Translations under genes and position numbers: made by a program | Notes under the pieces: model-generated | What the model was told of the DNA's origin: nothing | What the model saw: only the letters and a program-made list of their open reading frames with translations | The model's database searches: none | Source: a phage | DNA length: 64,000 nucleotides | Assembly (NCBI GenBank): GCA_027218345.1 | Contig: GCA_027218345.1_3950.1 | Reading direction: 5' to 3' (one strand) | Shown here: piece after piece, positions 1-33,971 of the stretch | Position numbering within the stretch: position 1 is the first letter of the stretch | How the letters are laid out: every line of letters begins with the position of its first letter

Positions 1-232
1 ATCAGGTTTTTCCCACGTCCAGCAAGTGCATTGAGAATAGTTTTTTCGCTTGAAAGCGTACCATCTATCATAGTTGCCGTGTAGTGGTTGATTTTATTCC
101 CGTTGATATCATACTTAAAATTGAATGCGTGAACAACAATTTTATTCCCTTTAAAATTCTCATCAAGTGACTTCTCCAGTGCGTTGCGAAAGTTGTCTTT
201 GTTGATGAATTTAGGTGCACGATATGCCATTT
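1..232 (-). CDS. hypothetical protein, 5' part only (gene runs off window start)
   Basis: ATG at 230-232 preceded by GGAG-like RBS; open frame to window edge on minus strand (MAYRAPKFINKDNF...); not in ORF track because truncated. Confidence 0.35.
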
Positions 233-445
233 TTGAATCTCCAGTTTAGGACTTTATTTAGTGGGGAAGGTCATTCCCTCCCCGTTGATGCAAATACTAG
301 ATAACCACGTTCAAAGAGTCAAGAAAAAATTTTAAAAATATTTTTGGCAAAACTGTAATGAAACGGGCGCACACGACTACCACAAAACAGAACACAAATC
401 AAGAATTATTTCTCAATCCGCTACAAATTTTTCTCTTGACTTTTG

Positions 446-480
446 GGGAGAGGGGGAGTAAGAGGGGGAGAGGGGTTGGT
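446..480 (+). repeat. G-tract run (GGGG-AGA-GGGGG-AGTAAGA-GGGGG-AGA-GGGG), potential G-quadruplex
   Basis: Four runs of 4 or more G separated by 3-7 nt in an otherwise AT-rich non-coding region. Confidence 0.4.
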
Positions 481-499
481 CTGGCTCTCTATAAAAACC

Positions 500-690
500 T
501 ACCTGCACAATCCTAAAATGATTTTTCTTGCCCGACCTGAGTGTGGTCTGCACGTTTTGAAAATGAAAAAGCTCTTTGGAGATTATCTGCACAGTTTGAA
601 AATGAATTTTCTCTTTGGAGTTCAAAATTCTCTCTACAGATTTCTCTACAGAACTCTACCTGCACAATTCTGAAATGAAAAAGCCCTCCT
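500..690. repeat. iteron-like direct repeats (4 copies of CTGCACRNTTYYRAAAATGA..., 25-35 bp)
   Basis: Copies at about 501-532, 550-584, 588-622, 655-688; also tandem TCTCTACAGA at 627-648; non-coding. Confidence 0.5.
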
Positions 691-751
691 TACCTGAAAA
701 ATTTACCAGATAAGAAAGGCTTAGGCTATTGTGAATATACTACAGAGTTTC

Positions 752-1537
752 TTAGTTCTTTGCGTCTAAGAAGGTAACTTCTGGTGAAGAGAAAACTGTC
801 TCGATATCCTCATCAGTTCTTGCATAGATATAAGTATCTGCATCACTGCCAAATGTTACTGCAATCCTGTGATTGCTCTTCGACAGGTGGGTAACTAGAG
901 CGTTACTCAGAGACATCTTTTCAACCGGAGGGTTACTTTGATGTATCTTACCTTTTCTTCGTCTGAAGAGGGTAACTGCGTTATCTGTGAACACTGCTAC
1001 ACCTGCAAAGTATTCTGGTTCACAGTAGTTCTTCCAACCTGAGAGTAACTTGTGGTACATCTCTCCTTCATAGACATATAGATAAACATCTACACTCTTC
1101 ATCACCTGATTGATGATAACTGTGACGGCTTGAGGGTCAAGTCCATCGATACCTGCACCAATCATAGGTAAACCAACTTTCTTCAACTGATTGACTTCAC
1201 AGTATCTGTTAAGCTGCTTCAAAGATGACTCTAAAGCACTGTATCGGGCATCTTTACCAGTATGAAGTTGGGTGTAAAGGTTAGCTATACGACCTTGTTT
1301 TAAACGTGCTACAGAGAAATTACCTAGTAAATTTTCACAGGGTTTGTGGCGAATGCCACCTGCAAACAGGTAAACTTCTGTGTCAGTATCATACACTTTT
1401 GGATAACGCTTAGAAATAGTTGCTGCAATACCTGCACCCATGAAATTCATACAGTTGCAACCATGACCAATGATGTCAAACTTACCTTTATCAAATGCGT
1501 CAAATATATCGCCATTGATGATTTTTACAATACCCAT
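752..1537 (-). CDS. macro-domain protein (TARG1/DarG-like ADP-ribose hydrolase fold) with about 100-aa C-terminal extension
   Basis: N-terminal GDIF..DIIGHGCNC..MGAGIA and later PMIGAGIDGLD resemble TARG1 GDLF..LAHCIS.DCRMGAGIA / PRIGCGLDRL. Confidence 0.5.
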   Translation of the reverse strand: MGIVKIINGDIFDAFDKGKFDIIGHGCNCMNFMGAGIAATISKRYPKVYDTDTEVYLFAGGIRHKPCENLLGNFSVARLKQGRIANLYTQLHTGKDARYSALESSLKQLNRYCEVNQLKKVGLPMIGAGIDGLDPQAVTVIINQVMKSVDVYLYVYEGEMYHKLLSGWKNYCEPEYFAGVAVFTDNAVTLFRRRKGKIHQSNPPVEKMSLSNALVTHLSKSNHRIAVTFGSDADTYIYARTDEDIETVFSSPEVTFLDAKN

Positions 1538-1738
1538 TTAACATCTCTCCCAAGATTCTTTATCTTCTGAAGGCTTTACACGTTGCCCTTCGTGGTCTAC
1601 CCAGATACATCCACAACCTTCACAGATTACTGGCATTGCATAGCCAGCTTTAAAGTCATCTTCAGTGATAAGACCTTTTAAGTCTCCTGTATCACGCCCG
1701 AACATTTCGATAGCACAATCTTTGCAGAAGTCAGCCAT
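1538..1738 (-). CDS. small Cys-rich (zinc-ribbon-like) protein
   Basis: ORF 1538-1816; probable start at internal Met (MADFCKDC...CEGCGC); CxxC pairs. Confidence 0.3.
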   Translation of the reverse strand: MADFCKDCAIEMFGRDTGDLKGLITEDDFKAGYAMPVICEGCGCIWVDHEGQRVKPSEDKESWERC

Positions 1739-1958
1739 GAATAATTGCCTCTTGAATGATGATACCTTTGCCACAACGACTTTTGAAGTCTTCCAATGGT
1801 TGTGAGATGAAGCCACGCAAGCAATAACTAAATGCTAATTTTTCCCTGTAGGCTATCACATCATTTGCTGTAAATGGAATCACTTTATTTCTTCCAATGA
1901 ATACTGCTGAACGTACAATCTTGCGGGTCTTTTTATCTCTGGCTAGTATTACTTTCAT
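1731..1958 (-). CDS. hypothetical protein
   Basis: 75-aa ORF in co-directional gene array. Confidence 0.3.
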   Translation of the reverse strand: MKVILARDKKTRKIVRSAVFIGRNKVIPFTANDVIAYREKLAFSYCLRGFISQPLEDFKSRCGKGIIIQEAIIHG

Positions 1959-2259
1959 AGTTTACCTTCTCAGTTAGCTCATACAAGTCAACATGCTCAA
2001 TGCTATCAATGTTGATACCAATCTTTTTGAAGCGTTCTATCACTTCGTTGTCAGTCATCCATATCAGACACCAATGATTCTGAATGGATTCTTCAAGAAG
2101 GTCAACACAATCTTTAAAAGTTTTTGTATCACTTCTTGTTCCGACTACTGCGATTGTCCCATACAACCACTTACCATTACCATAAGATACTTGTGCTACG
2201 CCAACTTCTTTATCTTTCTCGTAGTAAACGGCTACAAAGTCTCTTCCATTAATCTGCAT
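1933..2259 (-). CDS. hypothetical protein
   Basis: 108-aa ORF, tightly packed with neighbours. Confidence 0.35.
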   Translation of the reverse strand: MQINGRDFVAVYYEKDKEVGVAQVSYGNGKWLYGTIAVVGTRSDTKTFKDCVDLLEESIQNHWCLIWMTDNEVIERFKKIGINIDSIEHVDLYELTEKVNYESNTSQR

Positions 2260-2261
2260 AG

Positions 2262-2534
2262 TTACTTCCTCGTTTTAAGAACTGCTAAGATTTCTTTAGA
2301 GTCTGGTAAGAACCATGTGTAGTGATTCTCTTTGATTTCTGGATGAGTGTCAACCTTTATTTTGCACTCTTTACCAACATGCTTAAGCTGTGCTGTGATA
2401 CCTTGCATAAAGATGTGACACATTACATTATCCATAATCGTAGGTAAGAAATCAATCCTCATGTAAGTATCTTTCGGTCTCGGTAGAAGTAAGTAACCTT
2501 CTGTGTAGAAAGTTTCATCATTACTTTGTGTCAT
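2262..2534 (-). CDS. hypothetical protein
   Basis: 90-aa ORF; stop abuts next gene. Confidence 0.35.
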   Translation of the reverse strand: MTQSNDETFYTEGYLLLPRPKDTYMRIDFLPTIMDNVMCHIFMQGITAQLKHVGKECKIKVDTHPEIKENHYTWFLPDSKEILAVLKTRK

Positions 2535-2800
2535 TACTGCTTATTCCCTAATAAAATCATATCAATCAAGTTGTTAGCTTTCATAGTACACTGATAGTAC
2601 CCGTCACGATAAAACTCAAGGGCTTCTGATAAGTCTGCACCAGTGTTACCTTTGACAGCATATCTTACATCTTCCTGAGTGTACTTATCACTTTCACTTA
2701 CTTGGGAGTTTTTGAATGTATTGCTCACTTTGTTCGTTGAACACCCTGACATAGTTATCAGTAACACAAACATTATAAAACTCTGGCTTAGTCTTTTCAT
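2534..2800 (-). CDS. outer-membrane lipoprotein, candidate o-spanin
   Basis: Signal peptide with lipobox LITMSGC; start overlaps 3' end of upstream TM protein gene in another frame. Confidence 0.45.
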   Translation of the reverse strand: MKRLSQSFIMFVLLITMSGCSTNKVSNTFKNSQVSESDKYTQEDVRYAVKGNTGADLSEALEFYRDGYYQCTMKANNLIDMILLGNKQ

Positions 2801-3041
2801 ATGTCAGTACCTCTTTTGTGTGCTTATTCTTAGCAAGCACGTCTTTCAAATCATTTTTGTAATTGGTGCTCAGTGTAGCTAATCCTTCCTGATAAGCATC
2901 TTTAGCAACACTTATTAGCTTCTGGTTGTTTAGCTCAGTTTCAGCAACTTGGTAGTCTCTATAAGAGTATCCTCCCCAGACACCTGCCCCAACTAAGAAA
3001 ACAATTATGAAAGTAGCTTGACAGAACTCTTTAAATGTCAT
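2694..3041 (-). CDS. N-terminal-anchored membrane protein, candidate i-spanin
   Basis: Single N-terminal TM segment (FIIVFLVGAGVWGGYSY) then periplasmic helical domain; overlaps lipoprotein gene. Confidence 0.45.
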   Translation of the reverse strand: MTFKEFCQATFIIVFLVGAGVWGGYSYRDYQVAETELNNQKLISVAKDAYQEGLATLSTNYKNDLKDVLAKNKHTKEVLTYEKTKPEFYNVCVTDNYVRVFNEQSEQYIQKLPSK

Positions 3042-3060
3042 TTAACAATCTCCTGAAATG

Positions 3061-3082
3061 AAAAAGGCTCCCGAAGGAGCCT
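3061..3082 (-). terminator. rho-independent terminator (AGGCTCC-CGAA-GGAGCCT hairpin, U-run on minus strand)
   Basis: Perfect 7-bp GC-rich stem with tetraloop; A-run on plus side means U-run in minus transcript. Confidence 0.55.
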
Positions 3083-3093
3083 GTATCTTAACC

Positions 3094-3558
3094 TTAACCG
3101 AGGACTTTAGCAAGGATATTCGCAGCCATCGAAGAAGCTTTTGCAGCAGCAACTACGCCAGCTTTGACAGTGCTATCCTTAATAGCAGATACCGTTGCAG
3201 CATCAGTAAAGAGATAAGTGATTGTTTTGGAACCACTTGTAAAGGAAAGCATAAGGGTAGTTTCCAGATTGAAAGAGCGATACGGAGCACCTTCTTTAAC
3301 GATACCTTCAGCACCTAACTCTGAAGCCTTACCCATATCATAGATAGTCATCAGGTTTTCTTTGTGTGCAGTCGTTGAACCAACACCTTTTACGTGCTTC
3401 TTAACGTTCAACAATGCACGATATTCACGAATGCTGCCATCAGCTTTTACATTAACAGCACGGAAAATTTTACCTTCAAAGTTACCTTGAATCATTTTAC
3501 GAACTACTTCAGATTTGTTTGCCGTATCGTCCAGTGCTACCGTAATGATATTGTTCAT
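3094..3558 (-). CDS. hypothetical protein
   Basis: 154-aa ORF with hairpin terminator downstream. Confidence 0.4.
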   Translation of the reverse strand: MNNIITVALDDTANKSEVVRKMIQGNFEGKIFRAVNVKADGSIREYRALLNVKKHVKGVGSTTAHKENLMTIYDMGKASELGAEGIVKEGAPYRSFNLETTLMLSFTSGSKTITYLFTDAATVSAIKDSTVKAGVVAAAKASSMAANILAKVLG

Positions 3559-3568
3559 AAGTTTTCTC

Positions 3569-4264
3569 TCAATGTTTAACTAACATGGTTTTAATGTGTG
3601 GAAGGATTCTGTTTACCTTCTGAACATTCTTCTCTGTATCTTCTATAAAGCATACTATATTAAAGTAAGGAAGAATGCAAGACTGAATCATCCTCACTTT
3701 CAAACTTTCTGCACTTATAGAGTTAGCTCCAAAACCACGCATAAAAAGCATGTAATCATGCTCTATGTAATGCCTTAAAAACATCTCAGTAGGTACTCTC
3801 TGAGATTCACCTCTCGCTGTCAAGAGTCCAATAGTAGCATGATTAGAGATTGCATCAATAATATTGAAAACATACGTTGGTTTTGCACTTACAGAATCAA
3901 GCAAATTAGTGTACTGTGAAAATGAACCATCAATCAGTTCCGTTGAGCAATCTTCGTGATTAAAATTTGTAAGAACACCATCAATATCTGCTAAGATGAG
4001 GTTACCTTTTTCTACAAGGTCTTTATTGACTATGACTAAACTGTCACGTCTTACACCTATAGATTGCCCCGTCTCTTTATCCACAACGTTCACAATCGGT
4101 TCTGAAGTGTGGAACTCTTCAAGTGAACATACAACTTCTCTTGCAGTGTCTTCAAAATCCCTGCACTGTTCTGGAGTCCATACACAGGAATCAAGACCTA
4201 ACTCATGAGGATGTAAGTCATAAGCATGACACAGGACTTCATCAGACTTTCTTAATTTTTTCAT
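3569..4264 (-). CDS. hypothetical protein, possible HAD-type phosphatase/nucleotidase
   Basis: DIDGVL (DxDG motif I-like) and LLTARGE; weak assignment. Confidence 0.3.
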   Translation of the reverse strand: MKKLRKSDEVLCHAYDLHPHELGLDSCVWTPEQCRDFEDTAREVVCSLEEFHTSEPIVNVVDKETGQSIGVRRDSLVIVNKDLVEKGNLILADIDGVLTNFNHEDCSTELIDGSFSQYTNLLDSVSAKPTYVFNIIDAISNHATIGLLTARGESQRVPTEMFLRHYIEHDYMLFMRGFGANSISAESLKVRMIQSCILPYFNIVCFIEDTEKNVQKVNRILPHIKTMLVKH

Positions 4265-13283: not shown

Positions 13284-13769
13284 TTACTCTGCTCGCCATT
13301 GACAATCGCCTTGCCATCCATACTCTTTTCTCCAGAGGTTTTGGTTATCAGAACCACGATATGGTTTAACTGTTGGTTTAGAAGAATCATACTTACCATC
13401 AATCACCACGTCAACATATTTCATCACATCTAGATGAATTTTTTCGTGTAACTGAAAACCTGTCCAGAGCCAGATAGACTTTTCTGGGTAAACAGTTTTA
13501 ATACGTTTACATATGTTGGTGACTTCTTGAATGTTTCTGTCATCAAGAGGTTCTCCACCAAGTATTGACAAACCACTGATGGCCTCATCATCCATTAATT
13601 TAATGATGCCGTAGAGGTTTGCATAAGTAAACTCTTTACCAGCATTAAACTTCCAAGACTCCCTGTTAAAGCAGCCTTCACAGTGATGTTTACAACCAGC
13701 TACGAAGAGGCTTACACGAACCCCTTCGCCATTAGCTGTGTCAAATGGTCGAATCTCCATGTAATTCAT
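13284..13769 (-). CDS. nrdG: anaerobic ribonucleotide reductase activating protein (radical SAM)
   Basis: N-terminal FDTANGEGVRVSLFVAGCKHHCEGCFN, typical NrdG Cys cluster; 161 aa. Confidence 0.7.
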   Translation of the reverse strand: MNYMEIRPFDTANGEGVRVSLFVAGCKHHCEGCFNRESWKFNAGKEFTYANLYGIIKLMDDEAISGLSILGGEPLDDRNIQEVTNICKRIKTVYPEKSIWLWTGFQLHEKIHLDVMKYVDVVIDGKYDSSKPTVKPYRGSDNQNLWRKEYGWQGDCQWRAE

Positions 13770-14821: not shown

Positions 14822-15769
14822 TTACATAGAAACTCTGTCACGAATCTCAGCAATTTTTGCATCATTCATTCGGGATTCACCTTTAATCTTAGTCCATCCA
14901 AGATAACCACACACCCTGTTAATCACAGAGATATCATGTGAATGGCAAACCTCACATTCTTCAACATCAGCCTTTGGTCTGTTACCACAATGCTCACAGA
15001 TTGCTAAGTCAAAGTTAAGCCCCTGATAAAAACCTTTCAACATCCCTCTGGTAATACAACTTTTAAGTGCTGTTAAGTTTTCTGGGTTAGCTACCCTTAC
15101 ATACTGGATTCTGCCACCTCTACAGATGTGGAAGAATGGCTCTTCTAAGTCCTGCTTCTCAAATGGTGAAATGTTTGCTGCAACATTCATATGGAAACTG
15201 TTTGTAAAGTATTCCTTGTCAGAAACGCCTTTGATAACACCAAACATATCTCTGAACTGTTTTAGCTGAGTTCCACACAATGACTCTGCTGGAGTGCCAT
15301 ATACTGCATACAGGAAGCCATCTTCATTCTTAAACTCTTCAGTTTTCATGTTAATGTATGCCAGAACATCGTATGCAAAACTAGAACTTCCAACTTCATG
15401 GAGTCGTTTACCTTCAGCAAGAACAGATAACTCATCAAGCGCAGTAACCCCAAAAGAAGCTGTGAAGGACTTCACGATATCCCAACCAACCTTGTCGGTA
15501 GGTTTTTTAGTTCCTTTGTACAAACCACCTTGTGTGAATGCAAGAGGGTTAGAACTTGCTGGCATATTAGCAATCATTTCGTAGCGTTTCTTGTGGAAGC
15601 TGCGAATCATCTCTAGGTACTTATCAAGCTCTTTCCAGAAATCTAAACCATTCTCTTTAGAATACTGGTAAATCATTGGTAAGTTCAAAGATACCGCACC
15701 AATGTTAGCACGACCTACATAAAACTCTTCACCATCTTCGTTATGGTATGGTGATAAAAATGCTCTACA
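14822..15769 (-). CDS. nrdD: anaerobic ribonucleoside-triphosphate reductase, exon 2 (C-terminal part with glycyl-radical site)
   Basis: Frame stays open upstream of the track start back to a Cys codon near 15767-15769 (CRAFLSPYHNEDGEEFYVGRANIGAVSLNLP...); C-terminal Zn ribbon CEHCG...CEVCH and RVCGYLG. Confidence 0.7.
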   Translation of the reverse strand, partial: CRAFLSPYHNEDGEEFYVGRANIGAVSLNLPMIYQYSKENGLDFWKELDKYLEMIRSFHKKRYEMIANMPASSNPLAFTQGGLYKGTKKPTDKVGWDIVKSFTASFGVTALDELSVLAEGKRLHEVGSSSFAYDVLAYINMKTEEFKNEDGFLYAVYGTPAESLCGTQLKQFRDMFGVIKGVSDKEYFTNSFHMNVAANISPFEKQDLEEPFFHICRGGRIQYVRVANPENLTALKSCITRGMLKGFYQGLNFDLAICEHCGNRPKADVEECEVCHSHDISVINRVCGYLGWTKIKGESRMNDAKIAEIRDRVSM

Positions 15770-16085
15770 CTTGTTGTTCAGGTAAGTTCGCTACGCTTAC
15801 CCCGCTTTATTCAAGCTGCTTACTGTCGCCAGTAAGTCCAGACTATATCTTCTACTTATTTCTAAGTAGCGTACCATTTCGAGTCGCTTGACCCTACACC
15901 GCTACATTCATCACGGTTAGTCGTTCGGCATTTAGATGTATTCAAACTCATATTCGAAGTTACTTGGCATGTAAGACTCCTATGTTGTATAGTTTCTTAC
16001 ATCGTACATCATTTAGCACAGGATTGTCTACTCTTGTAGAGTTTCCCTGTTTAGGCACGTTTTAGATGAGCTATAGAGCTTGTTA
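15770..16085 (-). ncRNA. group I self-splicing intron (about 315 nt, no ORF) interrupting nrdD
   Basis: P-like AACAGGGAAAC, Q-like CAATCCTGTGC, S-like AAGATATAGTCTGG (plus 15841-15852 is its complement), 5' exon ends in U, intron ends in G; boundaries +/-2 nt. Confidence 0.65.
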
Positions 16086-17282
16086 ACCCATCGGCGAAAT
16101 AACCTTGCCAGAACGCTCAAAAGCTTCTGCTACAGCACCATGACCAGATACACTTAAGAAATCTGGATACATCGCTTTAGAGCAACACTCAATAGCTTTA
16201 CTGTACAGGTGACTTTGACAGATATTTTCATCATGTCTCTTCTGGTCATAAATATAAACCAGTTTAGGGAATACAACAGGCTTCTTGCTCTTACCTTGTC
16301 CATTCATACGAACATCTAGGAGAGTACTTGCAATCATGTATTGTAGCCGGTTGTCTTCATTAGACATATCTGAGTCAAGTAAACCAAATGTCAAAGTTGT
16401 GAATGCGAAATCACCACGGCTGCAAGGTACGGTGTTTAGCTTCATTTCAAGTGATTGAAAACCTTGAGTCAATTCAAGCTGTAGCTGCTCCATGACATAA
16501 TTATGGTAATGTTCTTTAGGAATACCATAAGATGCTGCTTTCTCAGCATGGTAACGTAGAGACTTCTTAGCATACGGTACAAGTACCTTATCAATCTCTG
16601 CTAAAGTAAAGCCACCAAATTGCTGTGCAGTTGCTGAAAGAACTACATCACCAATAACCTGTAAGGCTGACAGCACAGACTTTGGTTCACAGTATTCAAT
16701 GCCAGACATTTCAAAGCCACCTTTCAGTACTTTACCAATGTCAAACAAGCAACAGTTAATACCACCAAAAATTAGGTCTCTTAAATCATGGATATAGATA
16801 AACCCTTTTTCAATGGCTTCAAGTTCCTCTGGTGTTAAGTGGTACTGTTTAAAGATTTCTTTAGTCAGATAACCACGAATAATTGAACCTTTTGTAGAAA
16901 TTAAACTGCTGTCAAAATTAGCGTTTTCTCTGTCACCTAAGAAGAGTGTATCTTTGGTCTTCTGGTAGAGTTCATCCCAATTTTGAGCAACCTCTTTACG
17001 GTAATTTCTATATGTTGAGTAAGACTCATAAATCTCGTGATTGACTTCTGCCAAAGCACCCTCAACAATACTGTGAATATCATTTACTGAAACGAGTAAA
17101 TTATTCTGCTTAGTGGACTTTACCAGAATCCTCATAAATGCTGACTCAAGAGCTTGGGTAACATCTGGTGGAAGCTCTTTATAACCAACTCTGTTAGCTG
17201 ACTTTGTGACTGCTACTAAAACTTTTTTGATATCAGGTTCTTCGAGTGAGCCATTCTTTTTAATAATCTGTACTTTGTTCAT
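16086..17282 (-). CDS. nrdD: anaerobic ribonucleoside-triphosphate reductase, exon 1 (N-terminal part with ATP-cone)
   Basis: 399-aa ORF ending ...VISPMG then stop that falls inside the intron; class III RNR-like; continuity with exon 2 after intron removal. Confidence 0.7.
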
Positions 17283-30210: not shown

Positions 30211-30467
30211 GTAAGCCTCTTTTAAGTAACTATTAAGTTTTAATCTTTTATCTTAACGTATTCTATACGTTATACTTTAAAGCTTTTTAAAAGCTATTAA
30301 ATAATCTTTTAAGAATTTTAAAGTATCTGTATAGTTAAACTGTTAAGTAACCTTTTAAGTAAAAACCCACTTCGCAAAGATTAACACCTTGTCAAGTACA
30401 TTGTCAACTTGCTTTTTATAATTTTTTGCAGTAATGTATGTGGTTAATGATTTTAGAGGGAGTAAAA
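30211..30467. promoter_or_regulatory. AT-rich divergent intergenic control region with repeated TTAAGTAA motifs
   Basis: Lies between divergent minus (29788-30210) and plus (DNA polymerase) genes; TTTTAAGTAA-like motif at about 30219, 30342, 30352; TTGTCA and TATAAT hexamers present but spacing not canonical. Confidence 0.35.
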
Positions 30468-32610
30468 ATGGAAAACGTAGATTTTAAAAACTTACATTTG
30501 GTTGGCGATACAGAAACTGATGGTTTACTCCTTGAGTTCACTAAAGTACACGTAATGGCTTTCGCAGACTATAAATCTGACGATGAAGAGCCACCTGTAT
30601 GGGTCTTTACAGATGAGCCTATCCTCGGTCACAAGTACACTAAGTACATTAAGGGTGGTTTACGTGAAGGTGTTGAGTTTGCGTTAAAGGCAAAACGACT
30701 TTGTATCCATAACGGCCTCGGTTATGACTGGTGGGTCTTCAATCACATTGCACCGGATTTATGGAACTTTGATAATCCAAAGTGTAAGCCGTGGAGTAAT
30801 TTCTTTCAGGATTCTCTTATCCAGTCTCGTGTTCAGTGGATGGATAGACCAACTCCAAAGGGTTATAAAGGTGCTCATGGCTTGGCTGCATGGGGTGCTC
30901 GTGTTGGTGTCCGTAAACCAGAGATTGAACATTGGGGTGTGTGGAATGCAGAAATCTTCACTCGTGTTGTGGAAGATATCCGTATTAACGCCAAAACTAA
31001 ACGCGCACTAGATAATGAATATCTCAAGCTGAAGAAGTGTGGCATAGACACCTATGAAACCTATATGCGAGCTAAAGAAACATCTTTCTGGATGAGTCAA
31101 CAAGCTATCAATGGTTGGAAAGCTGATAAAGAGCTTATGGAGTTCCATGTAAAGGAACTTGACAAGTTGACTAATGAGCTTGCTTCGGAAGTTGAACCAC
31201 ATCTTCCTCCAACTATTAAGACCAAAGGTAAAGTTACTGGGGAAGAGTTTGCAAAAGCTTGGAATGAGTATGTTGAAGCATTTGGTCATGCAGATGGACT
31301 GAAGAGAATCACCAAGTACCCTAAGACAAAGTATCGTCAGCAGGTACGTAATGGTGAAATGCAGACATATGAAATCAAGCCATTTGGTAAGCCAACTACA
31401 AAGATTTTTAACATTGAAAAGAGAAATTGCTATACGCCAACCAACTCTGTAACTGGTGAAGAGTACAAGGAAGGTTTTGTAGCAATGAAGGATGCTCGTG
31501 CAATTTGCAATGAGTTGAACGCAAAGATTGGTAAGAAATGCAAAGACTGGAAGCCAGTAAAAACAGTCAAAACTGTGAAGTACTATAACAGCCACGTTGT
31601 TAACCACTTTGAACTTGAGTCAAGTCGCTACACAGGATTGATTGATGCACCATATACACCAATTGAGTTTGAAGTTTCTCGTATGACTCAGGTAGCAGTT
31701 GTTAAAGACTACTTGAAATCAGTTGGTTGGATTCCAGATGACTGGAACTACAAGAAAGACTCAGATGGTCGCCCTGTCAAAGTTTGTCGTTTCAAAGACA
31801 ATAAAAAGATGATTACAAAGCATCCTAAGTGGCAGGAGATGGTTGAGCGGTGTGGTTTGAGCTATGTTGAGCATGAAGGTGTACAGTACATTGAGCATAA
31901 CTGGTCTGTGAAGAAATACACAGATTTGCTTGAGCCTTGCTTAATCCGTACTTCACCAAAACTTACTGAATCATCTTATGATACGATTGAAGGTGAACTT
32001 GGACAGAAGATTGCTAAGTACTATACTTTGATGCACAGACGCAGAACTATTGAGAACTCAAAGGATGATGAAAAAGGTTGGTTGAACCAGATTCGTCCTG
32101 ATGGTCGCCTTAGTGCTGGTGCAATGGTATTTGGTACTTCAACTGGACGTATGACACAATATGGTATTGTAAACGTACCGTCTGGTGCTGCTGTCTATGG
32201 AGCACCTATGAGGGCAGTGTGGATTTGTGAAGATGGAACCAACGTAGTCTCCGTTGATATGAACTCAGCCCAGCTAGTTCTTCTTTGCAACTTTATGGGT
32301 GATAAAGAGTTCACTAAAGCAGTAACTGAAGGTAAAGAGTCAGTAGAATTTACCAAGCAAGAAGATGGGAGGTATTATTGCAAACATCTTGATAAGTACC
32401 TTAATCCAGAAACTGATAAGTATCTTCGTTATGATGCTGAGAATGACCTCTATGAGGTCTACACAGGGACTGATGCGCATACACTGAACAGTATTTACTT
32501 TGGTCTGAACAAGGAGGAAGATATTGTTCGTTGTAGGGAGACACAGGATGAGGAACTTCTTCACGAGATTACAAAAGGCCGTAAGAAAGCCAAAAATGGC
32601 ATTTATGCGT
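30468..32610 (+). CDS. family A DNA polymerase, exon 1 (3'-5' exonuclease and polymerase domains through motif B start)
   Basis: RBS AGAGGGAG then ATG at 30468; DTETDG exo motif; ends ...RKKAKNGIYA within motif B; track ORF continues 13 codons into intron before stop. Confidence 0.75.
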
Positions 32611-32877
32611 CAGTGGCGCATGTAAAACGTTGTGAATTGCTGGAAGCCTAAGTCTGTAAAGATATGGTAATCAGCAGCGAAGCCTCTTAAGAGGAACGTT
32701 CAGAGACTATCGAAAAGCATACTTAACGTATGAACTGAGTAGAGTAGGGTGGTAAGCTAATGACCATCCCAAGTGCAACGGTAGCACCACTGCTACGTGA
32801 TATAGTCCGACACTCCGTAGAAATGCGGAGAAGTTCATAAGAGAACTGGTACACCTTGCGAGTGTATTGACCAGATG
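32611..32877 (+). ncRNA. group I self-splicing intron (267 nt, no ORF) in DNA polymerase motif B
   Basis: P AATTGCTGGAAG 32635-32646, Q AATCAGCAGC 32669-32678, R GTTCAGAGACTA 32698-32709, S GATATAGTCC 32799-32808; P1 exon ATGCGT with intron GCGCAT (U-G at splice site); terminal G at 32877. Confidence 0.8.
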
Positions 32878-33434
32878 TATTGTTCGGGGCTGGAGACGAG
32901 AAGTTTGCAAAAACTATCAAGGCATCATCTACGGAAGAAGGTGCATTGACTAAACAAACTTACTATATGCGTCTGCCAAAGATTAAGAAGTTACTTGATA
33001 GCTTAGAAGCCGATTTTAAGGCGTCTAAAAAGGCTCTGGAAGAGGTTTTTGGGAAGAATTCTTCAATTGCTAAAGGTGGTTATATCAGGGTCGCTGGAGC
33101 ATGGATATGGTGCAAATCTCCACATAAACTACTGAACTACCTCCTGATGAGTTCGGAAGCACAGATTCAGAATGAGGCCATCAACCTAGCAGCAAGAAAA
33201 GCCTGTGAAGATGGCCTGACAAAACTGAATGCTCGAAAACCAGCTATCGGAGCAAGGTTACTTCTGGCATATCACGATGAAAATAGTTGGGAATGTCCAG
33301 AGGGTATGACACATGATATGAAAGCAATTGCTGACTGGATGTATGGACAAGCTTCAAAAAACTTAGGTTTGAGGAAAGAAACACTTGTAACTGGTACAGC
33401 AAAGGTTGGTAAGAGCTGGTATGAGGTACATTGA
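32878..33434 (+). CDS. family A DNA polymerase, exon 2 (motif B remainder and motif C)
   Basis: Joined reading gives ...KNGIYA-LL-FGAGDEKFAKTI, matching T7 gp5-type motif B KxxIYGxLYGAGDEK; ...LLAYHDENSWECPEG resembles motif C (HDE). Confidence 0.75.
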
Positions 33435-33437
33435 TTA

Positions 33438-33971
33438 ATGGATTTAATTTTACAAAAACGTTTAAAGGAGCTGCTGCACTATGACCCCGAAACAGGGGTC
33501 TTTACTTGGCTTCGTAGAGAAGGTAAATCAAGAGCTGTTAGTGTTTTTAACAGTAATTATGCAGGAAAGGTGGCAGGTAATATCCAGACTGACTCAAGTG
33601 GTCATAAACAGATTAGTATCTATTTTGACAAGAAAGCACATAAAGCACACAGACTCGCATGGCTTTACGTGTATGGCAAGATGCCAAAAGGTATCATTGA
33701 CCATATCAACGGCGACTCACTTGACAACAGGATTGTAAACTTAAGGGAAGCAGATGATTTTCAAAGTGCTTGGAATAAAGGTAAACCAGTCACCAATAAA
33801 TCTGGGTACAAGGGTGTAAGTCTTAAGAAGAAGTCTGGTAAGTGGGTCGCACAGATAAGTTATAAAGGTAAGAAGATGTTTTTAGGTTACCATGACACAC
33901 CTGAAGAAGCCCATAAAGCTTACTGTGAAGCTGCTATTAAACTCCACGGAGAGTTTGCAAAACTAAGTTGA
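33438..33971 (+). CDS. HNH endonuclease with AP2 DNA-binding domain (free-standing homing endonuclease candidate)
   Basis: HNH core HRLAWLYVYG...IDHINGDSLDNRIVNLR and AP2-like GYKGVSLKKKSGKWVAQISYKGKKMFLGYHDTPEEAHKAY. Confidence 0.6.
   Translation: MDLILQKRLKELLHYDPETGVFTWLRREGKSRAVSVFNSNYAGKVAGNIQTDSSGHKQISIYFDKKAHKAHRLAWLYVYGKMPKGIIDHINGDSLDNRIVNLREADDFQSAWNKGKPVTNKSGYKGVSLKKKSGKWVAQISYKGKKMFLGYHDTPEEAHKAYCEAAIKLHGEFAKLS

Follow-up and report, generated by a model that had tools for sequence, protein, structure and literature searches.

In this work, we focus on an interruption of nrdD, the gene of an anaerobic (class III) ribonucleotide reductase (RNR), in a stretch of phage DNA of 64,000 nucleotides (nt) that we will call the window (contig GCA_027218345.1_3950.1 of NCBI GenBank assembly GCA_027218345.1). 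The 2.7 kb around the interruption are 95-96% identical to the corresponding locus of many Felix O1-like phages of the genus Felixounavirus, Ounavirinae (Andreotti, EC6, FSL SP-010), which infect E. coli and Salmonella. From sequence comparison, we consider it very probable that the gene is interrupted by a functional self-splicing group I intron of subgroup IA2, which has lost the endonuclease gene that it once carried. An initial annotation, made from the letters and their open reading frames (ORFs), had already placed a group I intron of roughly 315 nt at 15765-16090; its presence is borne out, while its exact limits are found at 16085..15770 on the minus strand, which makes it 316 nt long. 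We will first examine the exons and the junction that they would form, then the anatomy of the intron, the fate of its endonuclease gene among related phages, the other explanations that have to be weighed, and finally the relation of this intron to those already known, particularly in phage T4.

The exons of nrdD and their junction

The upstream ORF, 17282..16083 on the minus strand, ends in ...GKVISPMG followed by TAA, and its coding part is collinear with amino acids (aa) 1-399 of the NrdD of phage NBEco004, whose gene has no intron. The downstream ORF, 15688..14822 on the same strand, carries the Zn-ribbon cysteines and the glycyl-radical motif RVCGYLG. Its frame stays open further upstream, as the initial annotation had noticed, back to a TAG at 15793..15791, and this upstream part encodes CRAFLSPYHNEDGEEFYVGRANIGAVSLNLP. 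When 17282..16086 is joined to 15769..14822, a single frame of 714 codons is obtained, in which the conceptually spliced junction reads ...CCGAUGGGU|UGUAGAGCA... (AUGGGU|UGUAGA in the RNA, ...SPMG-CRAFL... in the protein). The proposal that the ORFs at 16083-17282 and 14822-15688 are the two halves of one class III RNR thus holds, since the joined product of 714 aa aligns without a gap to known NrdDs and the intron-less alleles are continuous.

The spliced NrdD scores 484 bits against the NrdD model TIGR02487 of NCBIfam (cut-off 326). Its alignment with NrdD homologues of solved structure, a check that had been suggested along with the initial annotation, runs through the junction with neither gap nor insertion: the query reads ISPMGCRAFLSPY, to which correspond VSPMGCRSFLSVW in T4 (PDB 1h78) and APMGCRSFLQGW in a further structure (PDB 9d3x). 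At the position of the junction, T4 NrdD reads SPMG|CRSFL, aligned without a gap, so that T4 Cys290 falls on the first residue of exon 2, which is Cys400 in the window, and the Asn of the GRxN motif falls on T4 Asn311, as counted in the alignment. The equivalents of both residues lie within the first 22 codons of exon 2. We take Cys290 and Asn311 to be active-site residues, as is established knowledge of the T4 NrdD structure. The insertion point is between aa 399 and 400, immediately 5' of the catalytic Cys codon.

Comparison of the DNA with the intron-less allele leaves an ambiguity of 1 nt in the ends of the insertion, with a T flanking both, and this ambiguity is resolved because the intron must end in G. 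The 5' splice site is then at U16086, the last base of exon 1, and the last base of the intron is omega-G15770, as foreseen in the initial annotation, which had exon 1 ending in U and the intron in G. The intron itself starts with UAAC, that is, with an in-frame UAA.

Anatomy of the intron and its assignment to group I

A covariance-model search, which had also been suggested as a check, was performed with the Rfam family RF00028 (Intron_gpI), whose gathering score is 50. In the whole window, the model matches 16193..15819 on the minus strand with 54.3 bits (E = 5e-11), and a search restricted to 16100..15755 gives 50.2 bits (E = 5e-12), with GAUGGGU...GCUCAUC aligned as P1; chance is no explanation for such matches. 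The whole-window alignment would let the intron start at 16193, with P1/P2 about 100 nt into exon 1; we reject this start as an artefact that is gone in the intron-only search. Among the related loci, the same search at the gathering threshold retrieves only the T4 sunY intron and misses the introns of HNH-bearing Felix O1-like phages, rV5-like phages and Vibrio phage and the ORF-less intervening sequence of phage nom, presumably due to large insertions in P6 or to divergence. For the loci that were missed, protein and DNA alignments served to place the boundaries manually.

All of the helices P1 and P3 to P10 can be drawn in the intron (Table 1), and there is no P2. The initial annotation had seen a possible P1 between GATGGGT and GCTCATC, and all of its seven pairs can indeed form, the one at the splice site being a U.G wobble between U16086 and the first G of GCUCAUC; this P1 is kept in all five relatives compared, and its distal pair shows a compensatory change. 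The motifs described there as P-like and Q-like, AACAGGGAAAC and CAATCCTGTGC, turn out to be the two strands of P4, and the S-like motif, AAGATATAGTCTGG, is real as well, being J8/7 together with the 3' strand of P7. In Vibrio phage F89, P10 and exon 2 change together: the Cys-Arg codons are UGC CGA, and the guide GAUUGGCA pairs with UGCCGAUC. What defines subgroup IA2, which comprises introns of the type of phage T4 td, nrdB and sunY, is homology to the T4 introns and two additional helices, P7.1 and P7.2, placed after P7 and before the 3' strand of P3. Both helices can be drawn at this place in the window intron, and, along with its homology to the T4 introns, they argue for its assignment to this subgroup.

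The covariation was assessed over five introns (those of the window, Andreotti, an rV5-like phage, Vibrio phage F89 and T4 sunY), with the P6 loop trimmed. Over 13 helices, 98.4% of the cells are standard pairs and 26 of the 68 pairs show compensatory changes, as against 33-41% of cells paired and 0-4 compensatory pairs in controls in which the 3' partners were slid by 1-3 columns; since the structure was itself derived from these few sequences, we regard this as corroboration and not as independent proof. MAFFT misregistered P10, the distal part of P7.2, the rV5-like P8 and the F89 P9.1, all of which were checked sequence by sequence. P10 and distal P7.2 were excluded from the formal count, and the misaligned cells of P8 and P9.1 were counted as gaps or as unpaired. 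The divergent introns from IMG/VR are outside the covariation set, and a regular-expression search for their 5' halves was unsuccessful. As for thermodynamics, the minimum free energy (MFE) fold of the intron alone (-80.2 kcal/mol, z = -2.6) recovers P3, P4, P5, P6, P6a, P7.1, P7.2, P8, P9 and P9.2, to which the centroid structure adds P9.1. P7 is missing from the thermodynamic fold because it makes a pseudoknot with P3.

Table 1. Coordinates of the nrdD exons, the predicted elements of the intron and the neighbouring activase gene in the window.
Feature	Position	Strand	Evidence
nrdD exon 1 (399 codons, ATP-cone to ...VISPMG)	16086..17282	-	ORF list, translation
nrdD exon 2 (starts CRAFL; Cys400 to glycyl-radical motif RVCGYLG and stop)	14822..15769	-	translation, alignment
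Group I intron, 316 nt, IA2/sunY-like, without P2	15770..16085	-	Rfam, sunY homology, covariation, intron-less alleles
P1: exon GAUGGGU (16092..16086) with guide GCUCAUC (16071..16065), U.G at splice site	16065..16092	-	7/7 pairs
P10 guide GCUCUAUA, with first 8 nt of exon 2, UGUAGAGC (15769..15762)	16072..16079	-	8/8 pairs
P3 (5' strand CGUGCC, 3' strand GGUACG)	16059..16054 with 15875..15870	-	covariation, fold
P4 (ACAGGG/UCCUGU)	16050..16045 with 16023..16018	-	covariation, fold
P5 (UCUAC/GUAGA)	16040..16036 with 16031..16027	-	covariation, fold
P6	16017..16016 with 15929..15928	-	covariation, fold
P6a stem, 64-nt loop	16010..16005 with 15940..15935	-	recovered by MFE fold; 5/6 pairs covary
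P7, guanosine-binding helix (GACUA/UAGUC)	15922..15918 with 15845..15841	-	covariation
P7.1 (CCGU/GCGG)	15916..15913 with 15902..15899	-	covariation, fold
P7.2 (GGGUC/GACUC)	15894..15890 with 15885..15881	-	covariation, fold
P8, 7 bp, GAAA loop	15869..15863 with 15858..15852	-	covariation, fold
P9, 7 bp, GCGA loop	15836..15830 with 15825..15819	-	covariation, fold
P9.1	15816..15813 with 15807..15804	-	covariation; centroid structure
P9.2, loop GUAGCGAA	15801..15796 with 15786..15781	-	covariation, fold
3' tail UGAACAACAA (...AACAAG with terminal G), just before omega-G15770	ends 15771	-	drawn structure
HNH remnant: Shine-Dalgarno AGGAG (15981..15977) and 12-codon ORF MPSNFEYEFEYI with stop (15970..15932)	15932..15981	-	allele alignment
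nrdG (radical-SAM activase; functional partner of NrdD)	13284..13769	-	Pfam Fer4_12 148 bits and Radical_SAM

Deletion of the endonuclease gene and the series of alleles

The closest relatives of the window intron are found at the same site of nrdD in other Felixounaviruses, such as Andreotti, UAB_Phi87, BPS17W1 and FSL SP-010. Their ribozyme is 96-99% identical to that of the window and is followed by the same exon 2 haplotype, but the intron reaches 742 nt through an extra 426 nt in P6, where an ORF encodes a protein of 154 aa with HNH_3 and NUMOD domains, homologous to I-HmuI. The HNH-bearing alleles read ATGCCAAAT|TATCATG...GAACATAAT|AACTTTGAA and the ORF-less ones ATGCCAAAT|AACTTCGAA, so that the alignment of the two gives an in-frame deletion of 426 nt, or 142 codons, between two AAT repeats. 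The remnant consists of the first 3 and the last 9 codons of the HNH gene plus its stop, and it is preceded by a Shine-Dalgarno sequence, which lies, like the AUG, partly within a predicted hairpin of the P6 extension. The window shows one further change, from A to G, which puts a Ser at codon 3 of the remnant, where the other ORF-less alleles have Asn. The initial annotation was right in calling the intron compact and devoid of an endonuclease ORF, but this absence is secondary. The deletion endpoints are identical in all four of the ORF-less alleles compared (window, EC6, L27 and D1-2), and we therefore ascribe them to a single event.

Other phages have no insertion at all. In NBEco004, nrdD is a single ORF of 2145 nt whose protein is 98.9% identical to that of the window, with the junction ...CCGATGGGT|TGTAGAGC..., and the same empty junction, ATGGGT|TGTAGA, is found in wV8 and in the Suspvirus EcSzw-2. 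The paper on the Felix O1 genome reports no insertions in these genes (PMC3185647). To give orders of magnitude, the intron is present at a minimum of 90% identity in about 96 records of the phage collection, 61 of which contain the HNH-specific 426 nt, leaving by difference about 35 records with the ORF-less intron, and a junction probe derived from the intron-less allele finds the empty site in about 105 records; these counts are approximate and include RefSeq/GenBank duplicates. In about 35 database genomes the ORF-less intron has the shared length of 316 nt, with 96-99% identity. All three kinds of allele, empty, HNH-bearing and ORF-less, are found side by side in the genus.

The exons also bear a trace that is linked to the intron. 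Over the whole coding sequence, the window differs from NBEco004 at 127 of 2145 nt (5.9%) and at 8 of 714 aa. Over the first 60 nt of exon 2, 10 nt differ (16.7%), with one amino-acid change, and the comparison of this segment with three intron-less alleles gives 9-12 differences. A distinct and mostly synonymous haplotype, covering the ~55 nt with which exon 2 begins, is common to the six intron-bearing alleles that we examined, whether they are ORF-less or HNH-bearing. The other bases are found at these positions in each of the three intron-less alleles, and no intron-linked split is seen in the 70 nt of the exon 1 flank. Such a haplotype is as would be expected from co-conversion linked to homing, or from the protection of the occupied target against the endonuclease, and it is only by inference that one could be preferred over the other. 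As regards mobility, close relatives are thus polymorphic for the presence of the intron at one site, with a linked haplotype in the flanking exon, as is typical of mobile introns; the copy in the window has no functional homing endonuclease, only the 12-codon remnant.

Proposed mechanism and the weighing of other explanations

The anatomy of the intron and its homology to the sunY intron of T4, which we take to be self-splicing and which has the identical sequence in the P7 and J8/7 core, suggest how it would function. The pre-mRNA would fold into the catalytic core P3-P9, and the guide GCUCAUC would pair with GAUGGGU to form P1. A free guanosine, bound in P7, would attack after U16086; the guide GCUCUAUA would pair with UGUAGAGC of exon 2 to form P10, and the 3'-OH of exon 1 would then attack after omega-G15770. 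Ligation of the exons would restore ...SPMG-CRAFL... and hence the NrdD of 714 aa, whose catalytic Cys is encoded by the first codon of exon 2, while in any unspliced RNA translation would stop at the UAA with which the intron starts. The ancestor would have been a mobile intron with an I-HmuI-like HNH gene in its P6 loop, lost by one in-frame deletion of 426 nt. Because this gene is lost, the copy in the window should not be able to home on its own, and it would spread only by descent, by recombination or in trans.

Some observations weigh against a functional intron. The Rfam score is barely at the threshold (50.2-54.3 against 50). The covariation comes from five sequences that also defined the structure, which makes the shuffle statistics too favourable. 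In principle, folding could be slower because of the 64 nt that remain of the endonuclease in P6, and the record of D1-2 annotates nrdD as a 'similar to' misc_feature, hence as a possible pseudogene. The borderline score and the D1-2 record, together with the deletion of the endonuclease gene, could be taken to mean that the element is a decayed relic that no longer splices, in a gene that has become a pseudogene, the loss of the endonuclease being the first step of its degeneration. We find this very unlikely, considering that every helix and joining segment is intact and that the differences from the siblings are either in loops or compensatory. The exons are also open, and the 8 changes in 714 aa, against 127 nt changes from the intron-less allele, indicate purifying selection on the gene; its partner nrdG is intact, and about 35 genomes retain the 316-nt form at 96-99% identity.

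The databases annotate two separate coding sequences (CDSs) at this locus, and there is a precedent for a functional RNR in pieces, reported from Aeromonas phage Aeh1, where mobE splits NrdA (PMC3045599; PMC3653736). That the two nrdD ORFs are likewise translated separately and assemble without any splicing is nevertheless highly improbable. The first possible start of the second ORF, the TTG at 15688, is 27 codons past the junction, and the ORFs translated in this way would be without Cys400 and GRxN; there is no obvious Shine-Dalgarno sequence before 15688 or 15679, and the gap is occupied by a complete ribozyme and not by an endonuclease cassette. The annotation as two CDSs is likewise all that would speak for ordinary intergenic sequence between independent genes, or for an intein, and to these we give next to no credence: in the intron-less alleles a single ORF runs on without a break, the insertion begins with TAA where an intein would need an open frame, and the covariance-model and covariation evidence stands against both.

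Consequences for annotation

If a self-splicing intron does indeed split nrdD, the records that describe it need to be reconsidered. In the records inspected, the nrdD of intron-bearing Felixounaviruses appears as a pair of CDSs or as a pseudogene-like feature, or has small spurious ORFs called within the intron. In L27 (locus L013), for instance, 'hypothetical protein' CDSs are found at 178..276 and 345..530 inside the intron, and in D1-2 (locus L002), the misc_feature extends over 1304..2910. No joined nrdD CDS was found among these records. The papers found describe the gene only as divided by a homing endonuclease, or report an absence of introns (PMC3185647, PMC4837284, PMC3728262); the paper on phage SPJ41 lists 'two introns' among the non-coding RNAs, with no location given (PMC9951933). 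In the literature searched, which did not cover subscription journals, we found no paper in which this nrdD element of Felixounaviruses is called an intron, and a prior description is possible.

Some 95 database genomes would be annotated correctly if their nrdD were entered as a joined CDS with an intron feature. Beyond annotation, the genus offers a natural series of the homing cycle at one site (empty, endonuclease-bearing and deleted), in phages that are ~95% identical and easily grown and that carry a linked haplotype of ~55 nt. This series is suited to testing HNH-driven homing, the trans-mobilisation of ORF-less introns and the movement of introns between sites.

Genomic context

Along the minus strand, the genes around the intron run from nrdB through those of glutaredoxin and a small membrane protein to nrdD, and on through three small ORFs to nrdG. 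No tRNA or tmRNA genes turned up in a tRNA scan of the window. The records MG065664.1 and MG065668.1, unannotated and named 'Campylobacter phage A132' and 'A126', are 95% identical to the window across the whole 2.7-kb nrdD locus, and they are probably mislabelled or derived from contaminated assemblies.

The window contains another group I intron, at 32548..32830 on the plus strand (Rfam RF00028, 62.8 bits), which splits a gene of family A DNA polymerase. The ORFs around it are 30438..32651, 32880..33434 and 33438..33971, the downstream one matching Pfam DNA_pol_A, and directly after this polymerase gene comes a free-standing ORF for an endonuclease with HNH_3 and AP2 domains.

Comparison with related introns

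A homologue of the lost endonuclease is I-HmuI, encoded in the DNA polymerase intron of SPO1 (PDB 1u3e), which matches over residues 3-145 with E = 6e-11. It is an HNH nicking endonuclease of a Bacillus phage, from another host gene and another group of phages, and of the lost endonuclease only 12 codons remain in the window. Related introns interrupt nrdD itself at the same Cys codon. Introns of the rV5-like phage VB-EcoM-WM, of the rV5-like IMG/VR genome IMG/VR_UViG_3300010279_000001 (137 kb), of Vibrio phage F89 g2 (its intron 2) and of uncultured phages show the same ...MG|C(R)... insertion and the same logic of P1 and P10, even though some of the NrdDs concerned are only 24-36% identical to that of the window. 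The cores from VB-EcoM-WM, the IMG/VR genome and F89 are 72-78% identical to that of the window, and the differences in their helices are compensatory. The HNH endonucleases in P6 of these Cys-site introns are homologous, with 40-48% aa identity (48% for VB-EcoM-WM), and in VB-EcoM-WM and F89 the HNH ORF extends into P7.

The intron of the rV5-like IMG/VR genome, at ~2280..2560 of contig L025, is also ORF-less. Its core is 94% identical to that of the HNH-bearing rV5-like intron, and its P6 is a short hairpin almost as in T4 sunY, with no remnant of an ORF. It looks as if this intron was never invaded, unlike the form in the window, which derives from a deletion. More broadly, the exact 18-mer of P7.1, CCGTGATGAATGTAGCGG, occurs in 45 IMG/VR contigs, of which about 20 have an nrdD exon 2 that starts at the Cys codon, some of these with introns that diverge more from that of the window. 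In the other ~25 no NrdD homology is found nearby, and relatives of this intron family therefore presumably interrupt other genes as well.

Phage nrdD genes are interrupted at other sites too, at ~aa 223 (Clostridium phage CS36 and intron 1 of F89) and at ~aa 290 (phage nom). In Vibrio phage F89 g2 (1..3684 of locus L007), nrdD is annotated in at least 4 pieces, with two HNH-containing intervening sequences, one after ~aa 223 and one at the Cys site; the CDSs are broken once more at 3303/3304. In the Vequintavirus nom of Escherichia (1064..1376 of locus L008), an ORF-less sequence of ~300 nt splits nrdD at ~aa 290; it starts with UAAC and has the P7-like motif GACUAA and the motif AGAUAGUC, and Rfam is silent on it at the gathering threshold. 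Group I introns at the catalytic-site codons of phage RNR genes are textbook matter and will not surprise specialists. The wide use of the Cys codon as an intron site agrees with a known preference of introns for sequences coding for catalytic residues (PMC2988022).

The sunY intron of T4 has the same host gene, and its core (P1 to P9, with P6 trimmed) is ~75% identical to that of the window intron, as against 68% for the core of T4 td. Both the sunY and the window introns start with UAAC, are without P2 and have P7.1 and P7.2, and most of their differences are compensatory. Their guides are near-identical, GCUCAUG in sunY and GCUCAUC in the window, and J4/5, J6/7, J8/7 and the loop of P7.1 are identical, including GAAGAUAUAGUCUG; the P9.2 loop, GUAGCGAA, is also shared with the 3' end of sunY. 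The initial annotation had invoked the intron of T4 nrdD as a precedent for this type of site, which is right for the gene and for the ribozyme lineage but not for the site. Indeed, by tblastn and translation the T4 intron falls at ~aa 280 of the window protein, ~120 codons upstream, where it splits a Tyr codon (...DAFQAYE|YEVNT), so that the identity of the two sites is rejected. In T4, the Cys site, CCGATGGGT|TGCCGT, is uninterrupted.

It is possible, though less likely than not, that one ribozyme lineage of the sunY type colonised both nrdD sites, that of T4 and the Cys site, by guide-directed ectopic insertion, for example reverse splicing, and that the endonucleases were acquired independently, GIY-YIG in P9 and HNH in P6. 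The guide GCUCAU can pair with the ends of both 5' exons, AUGAGU in T4 and AUGGGU in the window. The sunY intron is 73-79% identical to the Cys-site introns, which are 71-78% identical among themselves, the host NrdD proteins are only ~30% identical, and the Cys site has, in L025, an ORF-less intron with a sunY-like P6 that was apparently never invaded. By these comparisons, the gene and the ribozyme lineage of the window intron have their precedent in T4, but the site is not that of T4, and neither are the type and the position of the endonuclease: the T4 intron carries the GIY-YIG gene of I-TevII in a 3' (P9) extension, whereas the lineage of the window carried an HNH gene in P6, now deleted.

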